Shown here: positions 2,570 through 12,449 of the stretch, piece after piece
Layout: every line of letters begins with the position of its first letter
Position numbering within the stretch: the stretch's first letter is position 1
IMG/VR virus record: IMGVR_UViG_2925919700_000004
Coordinates: 1-15,643 of that record
Direction: 5' to 3' (one strand)
Origin: a virus
Lineage: Duplodnaviria > Heunggongvirae > Uroviricota > Caudoviricetes
Length of the DNA: 15,643 bases
Notes under the pieces: model-generated
Databases searched by the model: none
Told to the model about the DNA's origin: nothing
The model's input: only the letters and a program-made list of their open reading frames with translations
Position numbers and translations under genes: made by a program

Positions 2570-2896
2570 TCAAATAAGTGGTTTGCTGCCTAATTTCATT
2601 TTCTGGCGACCAACACAAGTCACACCCATTTCACTGCGTGGCTTGCTGTACCATGTGCGCTGATTCTTGCGCTCAATACGTTGCAGGTTGCTTTCAATCT
2701 GTTCGTGGTATTCAGACAGCACTGTAAGGTCTATCGGATTCAGTGCGCTTTCTACTCGTGATTTCGGTTTGCGATTCAGCGAGAGAATAGGGCGGTTAAC
2801 TGGTTTTGCGCTTACCCCAACCAACAGGGGATTTGCTGCTTTCCATTGAGCCTGTTTCTCTGCGCGACGTTCGCGGCGGCGTGTTTGTGCATCCAT
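2570..2896 (-). CDS. Hypothetical basic protein (108 aa, Arg/Lys-rich N-terminus)
   Basis: The track ORF 2570..2947 has an internal ATG at 2896 preceded by a strong AGGAG about 8 nt upstream (plus-strand ctcctgt at 2908-2914). N-terminus MDAQTRRRERRAEKQAQWKAANP is highly basic, which might indicate nucleic-acid binding. Confidence 0.5.
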   Translation of the reverse strand: MDAQTRRRERRAEKQAQWKAANPLLVGVSAKPVNRPILSLNRKPKSRVESALNPIDLTVLSEYHEQIESNLQRIERKNQRTWYSKPRSEMGVTCVGRQKMKLGSKPLI

Positions 2897-2983: not shown

Positions 2984-3295
2984 TTCCGCAGGCCTCGCCG
3001 CTTTACGTGCGACATATTCCCACTCGATGCTAAATACACCGGAGAACTAGCTGATGCGAAAAAGCAGCTTGATGATCTGCAGCGTTGTGTTCGCACTGGC
3101 AAGTGTGGGCTGCACTTCAATGCCCGATGTCCAGCGAGCGGAAAGACCGGCACCGGCAGCTTGGGCGATGCTTCCAGCCCCGGACTTACTGACTCCGCTG
3201 AACGGGATTATTTCACCCTCAGAGAGCGAATCGTCACAGTGACGAAGCAGGTCGGCTACTTGCAGGACTACATCAAAGAGCAGTGTTCAAATTAG
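2984..3295 (+). pseudogene. Rz: 5'-truncated Rz (i-spanin) remnant; no start codon, N-terminal transmembrane domain missing
   Basis: Reading frame open from 2984 to stop TAG at 3293-3295 with no ATG/GTG/TTG start. Translation ...LDAKYTGELADAKKQL...DASSPGLTDSAERDYFTLREAIVTVTKQVGYLQDYIKEQCSN aligns with the C-terminal ~90 residues of lambda Rz (...LDAKYTKELADAKAEND...NAASPRLADTAERDYFTLRERLITMQKQLEGTQKYINEQCR, from memory). Confidence 0.8.
3054..3242 (+). CDS. Rz1: Rz1 (o-spanin) outer-membrane lipoprotein, embedded in the +1 frame of the Rz remnant
   Basis: 62-aa ORF MRKSSLMICSVVFALASVGCTSMPDVQRAERPAPAAWAMLPAPDLLTPLNGIISPSESESSQ, with a signal peptide ending in a lipobox-like SVGC and a proline-rich mature region. 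Strongly resembles lambda Rz1 (...VVGCTSK...PPPPPAWIMQPPPDWQTPLNGIISPSERG, from memory). Confidence 0.8.
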   Translation: MRKSSLMICSVVFALASVGCTSMPDVQRAERPAPAAWAMLPAPDLLTPLNGIISPSESESSQ

Positions 3296-3353: not shown

Positions 3354-3761
3354 ATGCAGACCGATCTGGAATACTTGAAGGGAATGTTAGGGGTCTTTAT
3401 TAAGGCTGGCGGACCATTGATATCAGCTAATGACCTTAAAAAAGCTGGATACGAAATAAGCAGCGATAAAGGACTCTTTCATTACTACCAATTGATTGAG
3501 AGAGGTTATATTAGTAACCATTTTCTAGAAATAGGCGATCCTAAGAAATTAGGACTTACTATTGGGCTTAATGAAATCCGTGAATGGCCAGCCAATGTAA
3601 GACTCACGTCATCAGGCCAAGAGTTTGCAGAAACCCTTCAACAAAAGGCTGTTTTTGAGAAGCTAAAAACAATTAGCGATCAACCATTATCGGTATTGAA
3701 AGATGTTGGTGTAGAGCTTCTAAAATCCTACGCAAAAAAGAAATTTGGTCTTTCAGATTAA
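3354..3761 (+). CDS. Hypothetical cytoplasmic protein (135 aa), cargo gene of unknown function
   Basis: ATG at 3354 with GGAGG about 8 nt upstream. AT-rich compared with the flanking Rz and terminase genes. No transmembrane segment evident and no recognisable motif. Followed by a terminator-like hairpin. Confidence 0.6.
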   Translation: MQTDLEYLKGMLGVFIKAGGPLISANDLKKAGYEISSDKGLFHYYQLIERGYISNHFLEIGDPKKLGLTIGLNEIREWPANVRLTSSGQEFAETLQQKAVFEKLKTISDQPLSVLKDVGVELLKSYAKKKFGLSD

Positions 3762-4077: not shown

Positions 4078-4350
4078 CTAATAGCCAGCCATTTGCAAAA
4101 TCACAGTTGCAGCAGCAGCGAAAGCTGCATATGAGTTATATTTAGACTGTAACCGCGCAGTTAAGAAAAATTCGTGAAGATCTACATTTTTTTTGGGATC
4201 ATCAAATGTAATTGCTACAACGGTGCTTCTACCTGTTTTGACTTTGGCTGTTGCTGATTTGATCCATAACCCAGCCGATAAAAACCCAAAGAAAATCGAT
4301 AGTGCATGATGGTCAATTAACCAGTTTTTAATTAGTAATAAATCACTCAT
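4078..4350 (-). CDS. Small hypothetical membrane protein (about 90 aa) antisense to the late operon, at the bor-equivalent position
   Basis: Track ORF 4078..4395 trimmed to the internal ATG at 4350 (MSDLLLIKNWLIDHHALSIFFGFLSAGLWI...). One clear and one weaker hydrophobic segment. AT-rich. Convergent with the 3354..3761 gene. Not similar to lambda Bor as I recall it. Confidence 0.45.
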   Translation of the reverse strand: MSDLLLIKNWLIDHHALSIFFGFLSAGLWIKSATAKVKTGRSTVVAITFDDPKKNVDLHEFFLTARLQSKYNSYAAFAAAATVILQMAGY

Positions 4351-6551: not shown

Positions 6552-8017
6552 TGGCACGAAACAAACAAGCCACGCGGCGAACGGCACAGGCCACCGCTGA
6601 TGGCTATGAGAACTTTGTTGCCCGCGTGGGGATGCAGACGCCTAACCAGCACTCAGCATCGACCTACCGGGCTAACTTCACCAGTCGTAACCGCATGCTG
6701 GTGGAATGGTCCTATCGTTCGTCCTGGATCATCGGCGAAGCGGTCGACGCTATCCCGGATGATATGACCCGCAAAGGCATTCGCATCACTTCGGAAATTG
6801 ATGCAAAAGATCGTGGCATTCTCGAATCACAACTGGATGAGTTGCAAATCTGGGATGCGCTGAATGACGTGCTGAAATGGTCGCGCCTCTATGGCGGCGC
6901 GGTGGGTTTCATCATGATTGAGGGGCAGGCACCAATGACCCCGCTGCGACCCGAAACCATCGGTAAGGGCAAGTTTAAGGGGATTCTCCCGCTCGACCGC
7001 TGGATGATCGACCCGGTACTGACCCGCCGCATTAAAGATATGGGGCCGGACCTGGGTAAACCTGAGTTTTACGATGTGGTGACCACAGCAACGGGAATTC
7101 CTGCCTGGCGCATTCATCACAGTCGACTGATTCGCTTTGATGGCGTCACGCTGCCATTTCAGCAGAAGATGACTGAGAACGAATGGGGAATGTCGGTTGT
7201 AGAGCGTATCTGGGATCGTCTTACCGCGTTCGACAGCGCTACTGTCGGCGCGGCGCAGCTGGTCTACAAAGCGCATCTGCGGACCTACAAGGTGGAAAAA
7301 CTTCGTGAGCTTATTGCGCTGGGCGGCCAGGCATTCGAGGCGCTGCTGAAAAACATTGATCTGATTCGACAGTTTCAGAGCAATGAAGGCATGACACTAA
7401 TGGATGCCAAAGATACCTTCGAAACCCACCAGTACAGCTTCAGTGGTCTGGATGACATTCTTTCGCAGTTCGCTGAGCAGATCAGCGGTGCCGTCGGCAT
7501 CCCGCTGGTACGCCTGTTTGGTCAATCCCCGAAAGGCTTCTCAACTGGTGACGCAGACCTCGCCAACTATTACGACCGGGTGAGTTCATTGCAGGAGCGA
7601 CGATTACGGCTGCCGATGCGCCGGATACTGGACATTATGCACCGCTCGGAACTCGGTAAGCCGCTGCCGGACGATTTCACGTTTGAGTTTAACCCGCTCT
7701 GGCAAATGTCTGATGTCGATCGTTCAACGGTGGCGTTAAATACCACCAACGCAATCAGTACAGCGCTGGGTGATGGTCTGATGACACTGAAAGCCGCTAT
7801 GACTGATTTGCGCGAAAATTCTGACGTAACCGGCATCGGGGCATCCATTACCGACGAGGACATAGAGAATGCCGAAGACGAAGCGCCGCCAGGCATCCGC
7901 GAACCTGATGACGAACCGCAGGAGCCGTCAGGCGGAAATCCGCTATCGAACCAGCCTACGCAGGATAGCGCGGGCGGTCGGAGACATCGTAAATGGTCAC
8001 TACGATGGTTCAAATGA
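6551..8017 (+). CDS. Portal protein
   Basis: 488-aa ORF immediately downstream of and translationally coupled to terL, preceded by GGGAGA. Size, position and acidic C-terminal tail are typical of portal proteins in Mu-like or SPP1-like head modules. Followed by a Mu-F-like gene. Confidence 0.8.
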   Translation: MARNKQATRRTAQATADGYENFVARVGMQTPNQHSASTYRANFTSRNRMLVEWSYRSSWIIGEAVDAIPDDMTRKGIRITSEIDAKDRGILESQLDELQIWDALNDVLKWSRLYGGAVGFIMIEGQAPMTPLRPETIGKGKFKGILPLDRWMIDPVLTRRIKDMGPDLGKPEFYDVVTTATGIPAWRIHHSRLIRFDGVTLPFQQKMTENEWGMSVVERIWDRLTAFDSATVGAAQLVYKAHLRTYKVEKLRELIALGGQAFEALLKNIDLIRQFQSNEGMTLMDAKDTFETHQYSFSGLDDILSQFAEQISGAVGIPLVRLFGQSPKGFSTGDADLANYYDRVSSLQERRLRLPMRRILDIMHRSELGKPLPDDFTFEFNPLWQMSDVDRSTVALNTTNAISTALGDGLMTLKAAMTDLRENSDVTGIGASITDEDIENAEDEAPPGIREPDDEPQEPSGGNPLSNQPTQDSAGGRRHRKWSLRWFK

Positions 8018-8492
8018 TAGCGTTACCGAAATAATGGATGCGCTGGAGCGCTACAGCGAAATCATCACCCCCTGGGCGACGAAGGTTGCTGAGAACTTTA
8101 CCGCCGACATTGCACGCCAGAATGAAAAGCAGTGGCGTCAGTACAGCCGGAACATCAGCGCAGAGCTGCGCAACATGGTCGACCGCGCCCCGGTAGGCCA
8201 GGTGATGAAATCCATCGTCGCCGAGCAAATTAAGTACATCAAGTCACTGCCTCTTGAGGCCGCCGATCGGGTGTATGACATTCAGAACAAGGCCATCGAG
8301 GCCGTTGTGTCTGGTGGCCGCGCTGAACCATTCGCGAAAGAGATAGCAGCGTCCGGTGACGTGTCACGCTCACGAGCGAACCTTATCGCCCGTACCGAGC
8401 TTGGACGTGCAACCGGCGCACTCGATCAGGCGCGTGCGCTGTCAATCGGCTCGAATGGTTATAACGTGGCGTCATTACTGGGAGGCGGCTAA
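7869..8492 (+). CDS. Head morphogenesis protein, Mu F / SPP1 gp7-like minor head protein
   Basis: 207-aa ORF containing the ...SRANLIARTELGRA... motif typical of the Phage_Mu_F domain. ATG at 7869 has GAGGA about 8 nt upstream but overlaps the portal gene by 149 nt; alternative in-frame starts are at 7908 and 8034. Confidence 0.75.
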   Translation: MPKTKRRQASANLMTNRRSRQAEIRYRTSLRRIARAVGDIVNGHYDGSNDSVTEIMDALERYSEIITPWATKVAENFTADIARQNEKQWRQYSRNISAELRNMVDRAPVGQVMKSIVAEQIKYIKSLPLEAADRVYDIQNKAIEAVVSGGRAEPFAKEIAASGDVSRSRANLIARTELGRATGALDQARALSIGSNGYNVASLLGGG

Positions 8493-8796: not shown

Positions 8797-9861
8797 ATGT
8801 CACAGAACTGGATGAGACATTTCGAGCTGCAGCTTGTGGACGGGAACGGTCAGGGAATTGAGCTAAGTGATTTCAAAGTCACCTTTACGATCGACTGGTT
8901 CAACATCAGCAGCGCGTCCCGGGTAGGGACTATCAAAATTTATAACCTCTCGGCAGATACTGTGAACCGAATCACCGGGCAGGAATTTTCGAAAGTGCGT
9001 CTGATTGCCGGTTACGACGGTATCGCGCCGGAGGTGTCAGCAAGCGACGTAGGGACCGTGCGGGAAGTTGACGCGGCGGACGTGGGCCAGAGAGATGGCC
9101 GCAACTACGGACTGATTTTCAGCGGTGAAATTCGCTACTCGGTCACAGGAAAAGACAGTCCGGTTGATACCTACGTCCTGATTCAGGCAGCAGATACTGA
9201 TCTGGCTTTTGCCACCAGTATAACCTCACAGACGCTGGCTGCCGGTTACACGGTCGCTGATGTGAACCGTGCGCTGATGAAAGACTTCGAAGCCAAAGGC
9301 GCGACCGAAGGCCTGACGCCTGAAATGCCTGCTACTGTATTCCCCCGGGGGCGGGTACTCTTTGGCATGACGCGGCATCTTATGGATAACGTAGCTGGTC
9401 AATGTGGTGCAACATGGCAATTCGTGGACGGTCAACGCCAGATGGTGGCGAATAACGAATATGTTCATGAAGCGATTGTGCTCAACAGCGCCACCGGGCT
9501 TATCGGCATGCCGCAGCAGACTATCGGCAACGGTGTAAACGTCCGTGCGCTGATTAATCCGAACATCCGGGTTAACGGGCTTATTCAGCTGGATCAGGCT
9601 TCCGTGTACCGCACCGCGCTGTCGAACAATGATATCGCGATGGCTGGTGGTCAGATCACCGACCAGAACACGGACGGAAATATCACGCTAAGCGGCACCA
9701 CAGCACAACCTGCCAGCATCGCAACGGATGGCGTTTATATTGTGCGCGGGATTATGTACACTGGAGATACAAGGGGCCAGGCGTGGTACATGGATATGAT
9801 GTGCGAAGCGCGTGGCGCGGCGGATCTTCAAAGTCAAGGAGCAATGAATCGGTGGGGATAA
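8797..9861 (+). CDS. Putative baseplate hub protein (gpD / Mu gp44-like); assignment by position and size only
   Basis: 354-aa ORF with ACGGAG Shine-Dalgarno. It is the last core gene before the spike-wedge-J-gp48 baseplate set, which is where Mu-like and P2-like modules place the hub. No diagnostic motif recognised, so the functional call is weak. Confidence 0.4.
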   Translation: MSQNWMRHFELQLVDGNGQGIELSDFKVTFTIDWFNISSASRVGTIKIYNLSADTVNRITGQEFSKVRLIAGYDGIAPEVSASDVGTVREVDAADVGQRDGRNYGLIFSGEIRYSVTGKDSPVDTYVLIQAADTDLAFATSITSQTLAAGYTVADVNRALMKDFEAKGATEGLTPEMPATVFPRGRVLFGMTRHLMDNVAGQCGATWQFVDGQRQMVANNEYVHEAIVLNSATGLIGMPQQTIGNGVNVRALINPNIRVNGLIQLDQASVYRTALSNNDIAMAGGQITDQNTDGNITLSGTTAQPASIATDGVYIVRGIMYTGDTRGQAWYMDMMCEARGAADLQSQGAMNRWG

Positions 9862-9863
9862 GA

Positions 9864-10328
9864 TTGAATAAGAAAGCCATTTTTATTGCAATAATTTTAC
9901 TTGTTCCGATGTCGGGATTAGCCGCTCCTGGGAAGTATGAAAAAATGGCTGTTGATTTAATGGATCAGCAAAAGTTTACGCAGTGGCAACATTACGCCTC
10001 TGCTACTCCTTTTTTCGCTATGAATGGTCGCAGATTCGCCATGACCATTGATGATTTCGCGGATATAGTCAGCAACTCCTTTCAAGAATGCGAAGATCTG
10101 GATTCCTACACCAATCGGAAAGGAACTACGGATGATTGTAAGTCCTATGTTTACAAAGGCATAAAGGAGTGGGTAAACCTCTCTCAAGATAAGTCTGTTA
10201 GCGATACAGCATGGAAAATGGGCCAGCGCTATGCCTTCAACACACGTAATCCTATTGCCCATAAAAACGCATGGGATTTCAATGGGATGGCGGCCGGTAT
10301 TCGCGTTGCTAAATCTCAAGGTTATTAA
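9864..10328 (+). CDS. Hypothetical secreted protein (about 155 aa) with N-terminal signal peptide; cargo gene
   Basis: I prefer the TTG start at 9864 (MNKKAIFIAIILLVPMSGLAAPGKYEK...), which gives a classic signal peptide with a positively charged n-region, hydrophobic core and small residues before the cleavage site. The track start (GTG 9783) would overlap the upstream gene. Two cysteines in the mature part. Markedly AT-rich. Confidence 0.55.
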   Translation: MNKKAIFIAIILLVPMSGLAAPGKYEKMAVDLMDQQKFTQWQHYASATPFFAMNGRRFAMTIDDFADIVSNSFQECEDLDSYTNRKGTTDDCKSYVYKGIKEWVNLSQDKSVSDTAWKMGQRYAFNTRNPIAHKNAWDFNGMAAGIRVAKSQGY

Positions 10329-10553
10329 GTCATGGATGCGCCGAAAATCATCGGATCTTTCCCTTGTAAAAAAGTGGCTGGGCGATGATTTTTGACGTCC
10401 ATAATATTATGGATGAACTGTTGCCAATTGCGCTAATTTTAACAAAATAATACTGGTTAACGCATTTTTTGAACCATCTGTACACAGTAGTTGTCTATAC
10501 TTTACCTTAAAGGTAAACTCTGCGCTCCACTGATGTTCACTATGGGAGGGGAT

Positions 10554-10793
10554 ATGAGGAAAATCGTTAATCGTTACTTAGCCGCTGCCGGTAGTGTTAT
10601 GGACATTATGCCGACTACAGATTACTGGCAATATGCTGCTTCTGGATCTGATTGTCGGGCAATAAGAAGTGATGTTAAAGTCATTGCAAGTGACATGAAC
10701 AGAGTTATCAGGTATGAGTTCAAAACCCCGCAAGCAGGCGGCCGTTCTCAAAAAGCATCAGGAAAACAAAGCGTCGCAAAAAACCGTTCCTGA
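10554..10793 (+). CDS. Small hypothetical protein (80 aa)
   Basis: Track ORF 10491..10793 trimmed to the ATG at 10554, which has a strong GGGAGGGG Shine-Dalgarno 4-5 nt upstream. The 3' end overlaps the next ORF by 80 nt in another frame. Confidence 0.35.
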   Translation: MRKIVNRYLAAAGSVMDIMPTTDYWQYAASGSDCRAIRSDVKVIASDMNRVIRYEFKTPQAGGRSQKASGKQSVAKNRS

Positions 10794-11286
10794 TTCGGAT
10801 GGTATCGACGAAGATATTGATTCCTCGGAATATGATGAGTCTCAGGAAGTAGTGGAAAAGCTGTCTGCAGTTGCCAACCTTGATCCTGAGCTAAAATCGA
10901 AGTTAACACCTGAACTTCTTGAGAGAGTTTCTAAGAACCCGAAGGTTATTGCCATGTTTCAGCAGGAGTCTTTTCAGGGACCACTCCCACCTCCTGCTAT
11001 GCTCTTACAATATAATCAAATATTACCCGGCGGCGCTGAGAGAATTTTCAGGCTAACCGAAAAAGAGCAAGAGCATAGGCATAAGACGCAAAGTGATGCA
11101 TTACTTGGTGCGGTTTCACGCGACAAACGTGGGCAATGGATGGGATTTTGCATTGCAATGGTAGTGCTTATAATGGCTGCGTTTTTTGCTAATCGCGGTA
11201 ACACTTGGTTCGCAGGTACTCTTGCTACTTTAGATCTCGTAGGATTAACTACAGTGTTTGTTTATGGTAGGAAGAAACCTAAATAA
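10714..11286 (+). CDS. Hypothetical membrane protein with C-terminal paired transmembrane helices (possibly DUF2335-like)
   Basis: 190-aa ORF with an acidic/charged N-terminal half, a conserved-looking LPPPAMLLQYNQILPGGAERIF segment, and two C-terminal hydrophobic segments (MGFCIAMVVLIMAAFFA and FAGTLATLDLVGLTTVFVY). The family name is from memory and unverified. Confidence 0.55.
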   Translation: MSSKPRKQAAVLKKHQENKASQKTVPDSDGIDEDIDSSEYDESQEVVEKLSAVANLDPELKSKLTPELLERVSKNPKVIAMFQQESFQGPLPPPAMLLQYNQILPGGAERIFRLTEKEQEHRHKTQSDALLGAVSRDKRGQWMGFCIAMVVLIMAAFFANRGNTWFAGTLATLDLVGLTTVFVYGRKKPK

Positions 11287-11302
11287 TCCATACATCCTTT
11301 CA

Positions 11303-11325
11303 AACCCGCTTCGGCGGGTTTTTTG
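11303..11325 (+). terminator. Rho-independent terminator
   Basis: AACCCGC-ttcg-GCGGGTT stem-loop followed by TTTTTTG, 17 nt after the stop of the membrane-protein gene. Confidence 0.65.
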
Positions 11326-11343
11326 CTTTCTGGAGCCTACTAA

Positions 11344-12096
11344 ATGGCAGTATCTGACCAGACCCGCAGCGGCGACCTTGCCGAAACATTCAAATCTGAA
11401 CGGGAAACAACAAAGAACCAGATACGTGTTGCTTTGCCTGGCATCGTCCAGTCATTCGATCCTGATGCGGTGACAGCGGTTGTGCAGCCTGCGATCCGTT
11501 CGGTTGAGAAGGATAATGACGGCAACCGCATTACCCAAAATTACCCATTGCTGGTGGATGTGCCAGTGGTATTCCCGCGTGGCGGAGGATGTACGCTAAC
11601 GTTTCCGATTAAAGCCGGGGATGAGTGTTTGGTGATTTTTGCCGATCGTTGTATTGATTTCTGGTGGCAGAGCGGCGGGATACAGGAGCCGGTTGATGAC
11701 AGAATGCATGATTTATCGGATGCGTTTTGTATTGTCGGTCCCCAGTCGCAGGCAAGGAAGATTAGCGGTATTAATACCAGTGCCACACAGTTGCGTAGTG
11801 ACGACGGCAGCACCTATTTTGAGCTTAATCCTGATACCAGGAAAATTAAAATTGTCGCTCCGGGGGGGCTTGATGTGGTTGCCCCCCTGGCTGATTTTTC
11901 TGAGAAAGTAACCATTCATGGCCTGTTAACCTGGATGGGGGGCATGGTGGGGTCTGTTGTTTCTGGTGTGGCTTCAAAAATCACTGGTGCTGTTGAGTTT
12001 TTGGGTAGCGTGAAGGCTAACGGCAAGCCAATCGATGATACGCACACTCATGGTGGTGTTCAGCGCGGTGGAAGCAATACTGACGGAGTAAACTGA
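11344..12096 (+). CDS. Baseplate central spike / baseplate assembly protein V-like (Mu gp45 / P2 gpV-type)
   Basis: 250-aa ORF with GGAG Shine-Dalgarno. The Gly-rich C-terminus has a His-x-His motif (DDTHTHGGVQRGGSNTDG) of the kind found at the metal-binding apex of phage spike proteins. Immediately precedes wedge-like and J-like genes. Confidence 0.75.
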   Translation: MAVSDQTRSGDLAETFKSERETTKNQIRVALPGIVQSFDPDAVTAVVQPAIRSVEKDNDGNRITQNYPLLVDVPVVFPRGGGCTLTFPIKAGDECLVIFADRCIDFWWQSGGIQEPVDDRMHDLSDAFCIVGPQSQARKISGINTSATQLRSDDGSTYFELNPDTRKIKIVAPGGLDVVAPLADFSEKVTIHGLLTWMGGMVGSVVSGVASKITGAVEFLGSVKANGKPIDDTHTHGGVQRGGSNTDGVN

Positions 12097-12449
12097 TGCG
12101 ATACAGACGTGAAGACGCCGATGGCGATTACACCTTTGGCAGCGGTGATGACACCTGGCTGATTAACTCACCGGAGGCCGTGGCGCAGGCGGTAAAAACG
12201 CGATTCGAATTGTGGTATGGGCAATGGTTTCTCGACACCACCGAGGGGACTCCGTGGATCCAGTCCGTACTCGGTAAGCAGAAGCCGGAAACCTACAACC
12301 TGGCGATCCGTAAGCGCATCCTCGAAACGCGGGGCGTTAAATCAATCCTCTCTTTCAATACGACGGTGGATACCACGACCCGACGTGTCATGTTTTCCGC
12401 TGAAATCGACACTCTTTATGGAATAACGACTGTTACATCGGAGGCGTAA
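12096..12449 (+). CDS. Small baseplate protein (Mu gp46 / gpW-like position)
   Basis: 117-aa ORF translationally coupled on both sides (TGATG at 12094-12098, TAATG at 12447-12451), between the spike and baseplate J genes. Assignment is by size and synteny. Confidence 0.55.
   Translation: MRYRREDADGDYTFGSGDDTWLINSPEAVAQAVKTRFELWYGQWFLDTTEGTPWIQSVLGKQKPETYNLAIRKRILETRGVKSILSFNTTVDTTTRRVMFSAEIDTLYGITTVTSEA

Follow-up and report, generated by a model that had tools for sequence, protein, structure and literature searches.

Between the baseplate hub gene and the central spike gene of a prophage remnant in Escherichia coli KSC64 lies an interval that we read, with a probability of about 0.7, as a lineage-specific accessory-gene ('moron') hotspot of SEN34/Brunovirus-type lambdoid myoviruses, with two independently exchanged slots. 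The DNA analysed, hereafter the window, is the whole of a viral record of 15,643 nucleotides (nt), IMGVR_UViG_2925919700_000004 of IMG/VR, and is 100% identical to positions 3475384–3491026 of the KSC64 chromosome (NZ_CP018840.1). The interval occupies positions 9862–11343 and carries three open reading frames (ORFs), labelled ORF A, ORF B and ORF C. The hotspot is bounded on the left by the stop codon of the hub gene and on the right by an intrinsic terminator of the phage backbone, approximately 20 nt before the spike gene. Documented here are the anatomy of the site, its occupancy across relatives, the modular exchange of its contents, the conservation of the terminator and the partnership of ORFs B and C. 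A literature search found no paper on the hub–spike hotspot or on any function of DUF2335, the family of ORF C.

Anatomy of the interval

The interval has a GC content of 42.8%, against 52.9% in hub plus spike. Its features and flanks are as follows, with protein lengths in amino acids (aa).

8797–9861, plus strand: baseplate hub gene, left flank (phrog_196 'baseplate hub', E 4.5e-89)
9828–10330, plus strand: slot-1 exchange module, the final 34 nt of the hub gene and ORF A (blastn breakpoints)
9864–10328, plus strand: ORF A, 154-aa exported protein, type II slot-1 allele (WP_140394813.1)
10332–10388, plus strand: remnant of a type I gene, its last 18 codons, MDAPKIIGSFPCKKVAGR and stop (C-terminus identical to full-length type I proteins)
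10398–10413, no strand: perfect 16-bp palindrome TCCATAATATTATGGA, start of the slot-2 module (sequence)
10501–10517, no strand: perfect 17-bp palindrome TTTACCTTAAAGGTAAA, 53 nt upstream of ORF B (shuffle test)
10554–10793, plus strand: ORF B, 79 aa (phrog_26284, E 2e-12)
10714–11286, plus strand: ORF C, 190-aa DUF2335 membrane protein (PF10097, E 1.9e-18; phrog_3996, E 1.1e-46)
11302–11329, plus strand: intrinsic terminator, stem 11302–11321 plus T-run (hairpin scan, relatives)
11344–12096, plus strand: central spike gene, right flank (PF18352, 150.6 bits; GpV apex motif PF18946)

The hub gene also matches the Pfam model E217_GP41, at 23.6 bits, under that model's cut-off. The spike gene is labelled 'membrane-puncturing spike protein' in RefSeq and has the Shine–Dalgarno sequence GGAG at 11332–11335. 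An original prediction, made from the letters of the window, had placed the end of the hub gene at 9861, the start of the spike gene at 11344 and AT-rich inserted DNA between them, and these limits hold. So do the three proteins that it described: a secreted protein with a signal peptide (ORF A), a small protein with a strong Shine–Dalgarno sequence (ORF B) and a membrane protein with paired C-terminal helices (ORF C, whose structural model shows two). It could name a family with confidence for none of them, which remains so for ORF A but not for ORF C, a DUF2335 protein; ORF B matches phrog_26284.

The interval has no flanking direct or inverted repeats and no transposase ORF, and a transposon or insertion-sequence origin was rejected because terminal repeats and a transposase were not found. 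Searching the interval against Rfam gave only a sub-threshold rsmX match, which is the terminator hairpin, and no hidden non-coding RNA. An antisense ORF at 9957–10319 was set aside as a shadow of ORF A.

Occupancy of the site across relatives

We fetched 80 loci via the spike protein, taking one genome per species, and placed hub and spike by tblastn; with the window and ten annotated records added, 85 loci have both genes (individual loci are given by L numbers). Cargo is present in 68 of the 85, with a length of 352–2817 nt (median 1305) and a GC content averaging 10.6 points below that of hub plus spike. In every annotated relative inspected, hub and spike are separated by two or three non-structural genes, which differ from phage to phage. 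The other 17 loci are empty, with a hub–spike gap of −14 to +86 nt; in L083, L035, L031, L034, L082 and L100, the stop codon of the hub gene lies directly against the spike ATG. The backbone is found in 353 of 5426 complete E. coli genomes (approximately 6.5%), the set used for all E. coli counts below, and also across Enterobacterales.

The 17 empty sites identify the interval as inserted material, in line with the expectation of the original prediction that hub and spike would adjoin without the insert in some related prophages (L083, L035, L082 and L100). The 80% occupancy, in turn, makes the hub–spike gap the normal cargo position of the lineage. What had been described as an uncommon cargo site is thus a standard one, and morons inside tail operons are of a known kind. 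For its phage lineage, the feature seen in the KSC64 window is ordinary.

Modular exchange

Pairwise blastn comparisons place breakpoints at 9827/9828, within the 3′-terminal part of the hub gene, at 10330/10331, at approximately 10385 and at approximately 11299–11312. The segment 9828–10330 is common only to loci with a type II slot-1 gene, at 76–98% identity (L003, L004, L023 and L009; L005 up to 10321), and is not found in the type I loci L002, L006, L008 and L007. The segment 10386–11298, containing ORFs B and C, has counterparts only in L002-type loci, with 98% identity. The junction 10331–10385 is present in type I and type II loci alike and forms a conserved boundary between slot 1 and slot 2, and the sequence from the terminator onward is common to all compared loci.

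The two modules also have separate distributions within E. coli. The B–C cassette occurs in 16 genomes, at an identity of at least 99.7% and always in the hub–spike site, and the ORF A allele of the window occurs in 9; only KSC64 has both. Together, the breakpoints and these distributions identify the 'island' as a recombinant of two pre-existing modules, so that the single insertion of the original prediction does not hold, and 10331–10385 is conserved backbone, not imported DNA. Slot-2 cassettes would be swapped by homologous recombination between the junction 10331–10385 on one side and the terminator and spike 5′ end on the other, a mechanism with which the absence of repeats and of a transposase would fit.

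A terminator of the backbone

The original prediction was right that a Rho-independent terminator precedes the spike gene (stem 11302–11321, AAACCCGC-TTCG-GCGGGTTT and a T-run, 22 nt upstream of the spike ATG), but wrong to count it with the cargo. A hairpin AACCCGC-loop-GCGGGTT with a T-run lies 15–25 nt before the spike ATG in 65 of the 68 occupied loci, whatever their cargo. In an alignment of 51 terminator regions, similarity begins exactly at the stem; 90% of cells pair and both sides have changed in 5 of 8 pairs, which 0 of 500 shuffles match. The hairpin also stands between hub and spike in cargo-free loci with gaps of 38–86 nt (L055, L057, L074, L095, L086, L098 and L091), and is absent from the empty loci L083, L035, L082 and L100, where the hub stop abuts the spike ATG. 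Its presence in cargo-free loci means that the terminator is older than the cargo and designates a position that tolerates insertion. An intrinsic terminator within the baseplate operon is therefore ancestral to the hotspot. If established lambda biology applies, late transcription in intact relatives would pass the terminator through Q-type antitermination, and in a lysogen the same terminator would shield the tail genes from transcription of the cassette.

Slot 1 and ORF A

A gene of one linked slot-1 family is present in 64 of the 68 occupied loci and, in 63 of these 64, starts −16 to +23 nt from the hub stop. The commonest form, type I, is a signal-peptide protein of 110–120 aa (phrog_3443) with BLAST hits in 55 loci of many genera. 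Type II, the ORF A type, is found in the window, L003, L004, L005, L009 (Hafnia phage yong1) and L023, with a more distant form in L053. The two types have no detectable mutual similarity; they are nevertheless interchangeable: one and the same N-terminal lipoprotein domain is followed, as C-terminal module, by a type I domain in L032 and L090 and by a type II domain in L063. In all type II loci compared, a type I remnant is kept (10332–10388 in the window) that aligns to the intact 3′ end of the gene in L002 and L006. ORF A is thus the rarer of the two alleles; it took the place of the common type I allele, of which the 3′ end persists as a scar. In Pseudescherichia vulneris (L075:629-2849), four tandem diverged type I paralogues lie between hub and spike, an array that resembles immunity-gene arrays.

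ORF A starts with TTG, 3 nt past the hub stop, the same start as annotated in RefSeq. Its N-terminus, MNKKAIFIAIILLVPMSGLAA followed by PG, reads by eye as a typical Sec-type signal without a lipobox cysteine, and family alignments show two invariant cysteines. The structural model (predicted local distance difference test (pLDDT) 82, predicted template-modelling score (pTM) 0.75) is of good confidence and places a helix, a small three-stranded sheet and a helical bundle after the signal peptide. Among 1.84 billion cluster representatives, ORF A has only 26 relatives, a tiny family in which some members serve as the C-terminal domain of a lipoprotein or of a Sel1-repeat protein; ORF A itself has no match in Pfam, NCBIfam, PHROGs or PADLOC. 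Given a start only a few bases from the hub stop, the slot-1 gene is presumably transcribed together with the late operon and coupled to it in translation.

The original prediction took the three genes for cargo and not for conserved components of the phage structure. Slot 1, filled in 64 of 68 occupied loci, comes partway towards such a component, and the signal peptide argues against a part of the virion. ORF C is a membrane protein, ORFs A and C hit no tail family, and ORFs A, B and C are not found in most relatives, which speaks against a baseplate role in the virion.

Slot 2 and the ORF B–ORF C cassette

Slot 2 extends from the type I remnant to the terminator and is highly variable across loci; greedy ORF selection gives 53 clusters outside slot 1 in the 68 occupied loci, some of them possibly from spurious ORFs. 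In the window, the slot contains ORF B and ORF C, which overlap by 80 nt. ORF B lies behind the Shine–Dalgarno sequence GGGAGGGG at 10544–10551 and has a conserved N-terminal motif, RRYLxAxGSxxDIxPxxDY (M..RRYL.A.GS..DI.P..DY). It is unannotated in the RefSeq record, as in the 16 E. coli copies, where only the DUF2335 gene is listed under the cassette, and a search of 5.8 billion clusters of called proteins gave no match to it. Only inspection of the DNA ahead of DUF2335 genes revealed its relatives. Similarly, an ORF of this type is unannotated in the GenBank phages RAH1 and BUCT711 (L106:3150-3520 and L107:3020-3470).

ORF C is a clear member of DUF2335 (PF10097; 66.5 bits against a cut-off of 25, profile positions 1–50 of 50) and of phrog_3996, described as 'membrane protein, moron category'. 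Its model shows a cytoplasmic helical domain and a C-terminal two-helix membrane hairpin, with helices at residues 107–160 and 164–187, and its homologues in Enterobacterales are 150–190 aa long. Members of DUF2335 are encoded by prophages of Proteobacteria, Firmicutes, Actinobacteria, Leptospira and Porphyromonas. The pairing with ORF B is confined to the Enterobacterales copies, whereas Streptococcus copies have a different small upstream ORF. A 'DUF2335 phospholipase' named in two papers on type VI secretion system effectors does not apply here, DUF2335 being a family of small membrane proteins; the name is probably a slip for DUF2235.

The two genes form a consistent pair. A motif-bearing ORF of 64–74 aa lies directly upstream of, or overlaps, the DUF2335 gene in nine enterobacterial contexts. 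In Citrobacter koseri (L012), the pair lies beside gtr-type (O-antigen modification) genes; in Proteus mirabilis prophages, immediately downstream of an S24-type (cI-type) repressor gene; in Klebsiella phage RAH1, within the tail operon, with the small ORF unannotated; and in Providencia rettgeri, within a siphovirus tail operon beside a colicin-type DNase and an immunity gene. Yersinia artesiana and Photorhabdus luminescens have the pair in the same hub–spike site, with sequences markedly unlike those of the window, and further copies are found in Pluralibacter gergoviae, in a Logan contig and, in divergent form, in the Uetakevirus BUCT711. In Xenorhabdus, a single polypeptide joins the ORF B motif to the N-terminal end of the DUF2335 core. 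The cassette thus travels as a unit between the cargo sites of different prophages, and the pattern of fusion and fission argues that the two products work together physically. The Providencia locus (L101:1236-3319) has its colicin/pyocin-type DNase (Cloacin plus Col-Pyo_DNase domains) and immunity gene just upstream of the B–C pair and the tape-measure gene.

The gap before ORF B is 165 nt long, AT-rich and non-coding, with palindromes and weak promoter-like hexamers. The 17-bp palindrome TTTACCTTAAAGGTAAA is a candidate operator beside these hexamers; a palindrome with arms of at least 8 arises in 1.8% of shuffles of the region upstream of ORF B in the window. A perfect palindrome is also found upstream of the Citrobacter copy and a shorter one upstream of the Yersinia copy, which suggests that the cassette may be expressed autonomously and under regulation.

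Other cargo of the site

The commonest slot-2 cargo, in about ten loci (L003:3239-4398, L005:3203-4355 and approximately eight more), is a HEPN-like pair consisting of a protein of 243–263 aa and a protein of 126–165 aa with the motif RNAISRAYY...H. The pair has a marginal match to PADLOC HEPN_IX (E 0.0094) and PHROGs of its own, 22649 and 5176. Other relatives carry a T4 Imm-family superinfection immunity gene (Photorhabdus, L062:4401-4694; PF14373, 54 bits), a PD-Lambda-1-like protein (L038, E 4.8e-83), the PADLOC candidate PDC-S42, YafO, Fic/Doc with Phd, and P22 Ant with Arc.

The PD-Lambda-1-like protein (L038:3407-4636, Erwinia oleae, with two further loci in its cluster) is 409 aa long, and its C-terminal 215 residues match the validated defence protein PD-Lambda-1, covering only the last part of that model. 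Its N-terminus is hydrophobic and coiled-coil-like, as judged from the closely related L039 sequence, and the protein may represent a variant PD-Lambda-1 architecture.

The host prophage

The prophage remnant is located between torS and torT in E. coli KSC64. Its left part encodes an integrase, an excisionase, a DUF2528/ea8.5 protein, Ral and N, followed by Rz1; its middle part, the small and large terminase subunits, the portal and a truncated head-morphogenesis pseudogene; and its right part, the baseplate plug and hub, the interval, and then the spike, gp25-like, baseplate J, DUF2612, tail fibre and fibre assembly proteins. The immunity region, the replication genes, Q and most lysis genes are gone, as are all head, sheath, tube and tape-measure genes, and the KSC64 element is therefore defective. 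Two large internal deletions can be located. At the first, N (2570–2896, minus strand) nearly abuts Rz1 (3054–3242), with loss of the repressor, replication genes, Q, holin and endolysin; at the second, the head-morphogenesis pseudogene (7908–8462) abuts the baseplate plug gene (8492), with loss of the capsid, sheath, tube and tape-measure genes.

The structural module is of the type of Salmonella phage SEN34 (Brunovirus) and of related phages from E. coli, Klebsiella, Hafnia and Yersinia. SEN34 itself, a myovirus, is regulated in the manner of lambda (PMC5261728). In the SEN34 genome, a Q-like antiterminator stands ahead of the lysis genes and a single long late operon. Between Rz1 and the small terminase gene of the window, two more AT-rich (36–42% GC) ORFs without a family, at 3354–3761 and 4078–4350, may mark a further site for cargo in this prophage. 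The gp25-like gene (12096–12449 in the window) is named inconsistently in RefSeq, where nearly identical copies appear as 'hypothetical protein', 'thioredoxin domain-containing protein' or 'contractile injection system sheath initiator'.

Discussion

Morons, in the concept of Juhala and Hendrix, are accessory genes within the late operons of lambdoid phages, with HK97 gp15 and lambda lom and bor as examples; HK97 gp15 is a membrane protein, encoded inside the tail operon, that blocks DNA entry. As with morons, the hub–spike interval consists of genes of odd composition, placed between late genes that are adjacent in relatives and followed by a terminator, in a late operon that would be read under Q; the absence in relatives, the deviant composition and the downstream terminator are all found. 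For a fourth defining property of morons, a promoter of their own that is active in the lysogen, the gap before ORF B offers weak hexamers and slot 1 has no space. Unlike a single moron, the interval is a hotspot with two slots and more than 50 cargo families, and its terminator belongs to the backbone and is older than the cargo. ORFs A, B and C have no sequence similarity to HK97 gp15, Lom or Bor.

Rousset and colleagues reportedly described, in 2022, defence hotspots in P2-like phages and P4 satellites, among them the Z/fun and old/tin loci of P2. The site studied here is similar in being a fixed position between structural genes, filled by rapidly exchanged defence, toxin–antitoxin and unknown genes, and one of the P2 hotspots likewise lies among tail and baseplate genes. 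The moron and P2/P4 hotspot concepts are summarised in bioRxiv 10.1101/2024.10.15.618418. The hub–spike site differs from the P2/P4 hotspots in its lineage, that of lambda-regulated SEN34-type myoviruses, in its position and in the additional, quasi-fixed slot for an exported protein, and none of the three proteins of the window is a known defence protein.

Individual genes can be set beside smaller systems. The lambda rexA–rexB module consists of two prophage-expressed genes including one for a membrane protein, RexB, with four membrane helices. The B–C pair of Proteus, directly downstream of a cI-type repressor gene, takes the position of rexAB in lambda, but there is no similarity in sequence or fold, ORF C has two helices and ORF B is far smaller than RexA. 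T4 Spackle, T4 Imm and P1 Sim, small proteins that carry a signal peptide or sit in the membrane, exclude superinfecting phages at a step after adsorption. In Photorhabdus, the same hotspot holds a true member of the Imm family, whereas PF14373 gives no match for ORFs A, B or C, and a fold search of the PDB with ORF A has no such protein among the matches listed. ORF A also differs from Cor/Llp-type lipoproteins, its signal ending LAA before PG with no lipobox cysteine, although some distant relatives of its domain are fused to lipoprotein N-termini. The layout of the B–C cassette, a small overlapping upstream gene with an upstream palindrome, is compatible with that of type II toxin–antitoxin systems.

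An action at the envelope is favoured because the same slot in relatives holds defence genes and because B–C occurs elsewhere in lysogen-expressed positions, downstream of cI. On the basis of position and company, we consider it a little short of an even chance that the products of ORFs A, B and C act at the envelope to exclude other phages. ORF A would then be a periplasmic exclusion factor, and B–C a membrane-anchored pair for exclusion or abortive infection. The guess of an envelope or defence function in the original prediction was reasonable, given the cargo found at the same site elsewhere. More tentative is the fuller proposal that B–C is a hitherto unrecognised anti-phage system of two components, anchored in the membrane, acting by superinfection exclusion or abortive infection and moving from one cargo slot to another in many enterobacterial prophages, and that the slot-1 proteins (ORF A and the phrog_3443 family) are polymorphic periplasmic exclusion factors tied to the tail module.

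Several observations weigh against exclusion as the function. ORFs A, B and C match no component in PADLOC-DB 2.0 at E up to 0.01, and nothing in NCBIfam or among solved structures. Slot 1 leaves no room for a promoter of its own, and its expression may be confined to the late phase, which would suit a part in the cycle of the phage itself no less than protection of the lysogen. A promoter scan before ORF B found weak consensus matches, no more than in shuffles. The type of the slot-1 gene does not co-vary with the C-terminus of the tape-measure/transglycosylase protein, so that the idea of Spackle-like immunity, tested by this co-variation, came out negative. The KSC64 copy sits in a prophage without a repressor, Q and most lysis genes, which clouds its present expression. 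Finally, the hotspot also carries toxin–antitoxin and regulatory genes, which makes guilt by location weak.

The strongest competitor, unlikely in our judgement but by no means negligible, concerns slot 1: ORF A and its counterparts would be a quasi-core gene serving the lytic cycle of the phage itself and not cargo that benefits the host, for example a late periplasmic factor that blocks re-adsorption of progeny or injection into lysing cells, or that modulates a tail-associated transglycosylase. The near-constant presence of the gene in occupied loci, its start at the hub stop without promoter room, the spread of type I over many genera (55 loci) under a PHROG of its own, phrog_3443, and the annotation of related tape-measure genes as lytic transglycosylases all point this way. 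Set against them are the swapping of two unrelated-looking alleles and the four paralogues in L075, a pattern more typical of specificity or arms-race genes, the lack of a slot-1 gene in 4 occupied and all 17 empty loci, and the same absence of co-variation with the tape-measure C-terminus. For slot 2, it is less probable still that B–C is an addiction-type toxin–antitoxin system or a lysis-timing membrane pair, which would stabilise the prophage or tune lysis with no anti-phage role. A small upstream gene overlaps a larger one here, palindromes lie upstream in the window, Citrobacter and Yersinia, the two-helix hairpin of ORF C resembles many small membrane toxins and holins, and slot 2 often holds toxin–antitoxin pairs (YafO, Doc/Phd); yet neither B nor C matches a type II toxin–antitoxin family in Pfam, NCBIfam or PADLOC, or a holin family, the fusion of the B motif to DUF2335 in Xenorhabdus would be unusual for a classical antitoxin–toxin pair, and the cassette lies away from the lysis genes in most contexts.

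We find it improbable that the three genes act in lysogenic conversion and, like Bor and Lom, serve the interaction with the host, for example through serum resistance, adhesion or colonisation, and not conflict between phages. Their products are exported or membrane-bound, the strains bearing the cassette come from animals, humans and soil, and the Citrobacter cassette lies beside gtr genes, but there is no match to virulence or adhesin families, the carrier strains have no common niche, and neighbouring cargo consists mostly of defence and toxin–antitoxin genes. Hardly credible, finally, is the one-off insertion of an island of three genes at an unusual point of the baseplate operon. The foreign composition of the interval and the occurrence of A together with B–C in 1 of the 5426 E. 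coli genomes could be taken that way; the site is, however, filled in 68 of 85 relatives, the interval combines two modules that differ in history and meet at a conserved junction, it lacks the flanking direct or inverted repeats of a transposon, and its terminator is part of the backbone.

Phage-borne hotspots are productive places for finding new immune systems. The hub–spike hotspot is easily recognised by its flanks, the hub gene on one side and the conserved terminator followed by the spike gene on the other, and most of its cargo families are unannotated. For the widespread DUF2335 family, the analysis provides a first consistent partner and a genomic logic. If the proposed anti-phage roles of B–C and of the slot-1 proteins are true, the hub–spike site would offer a new place to look for defence genes, much as the P2/P4 hotspots do.

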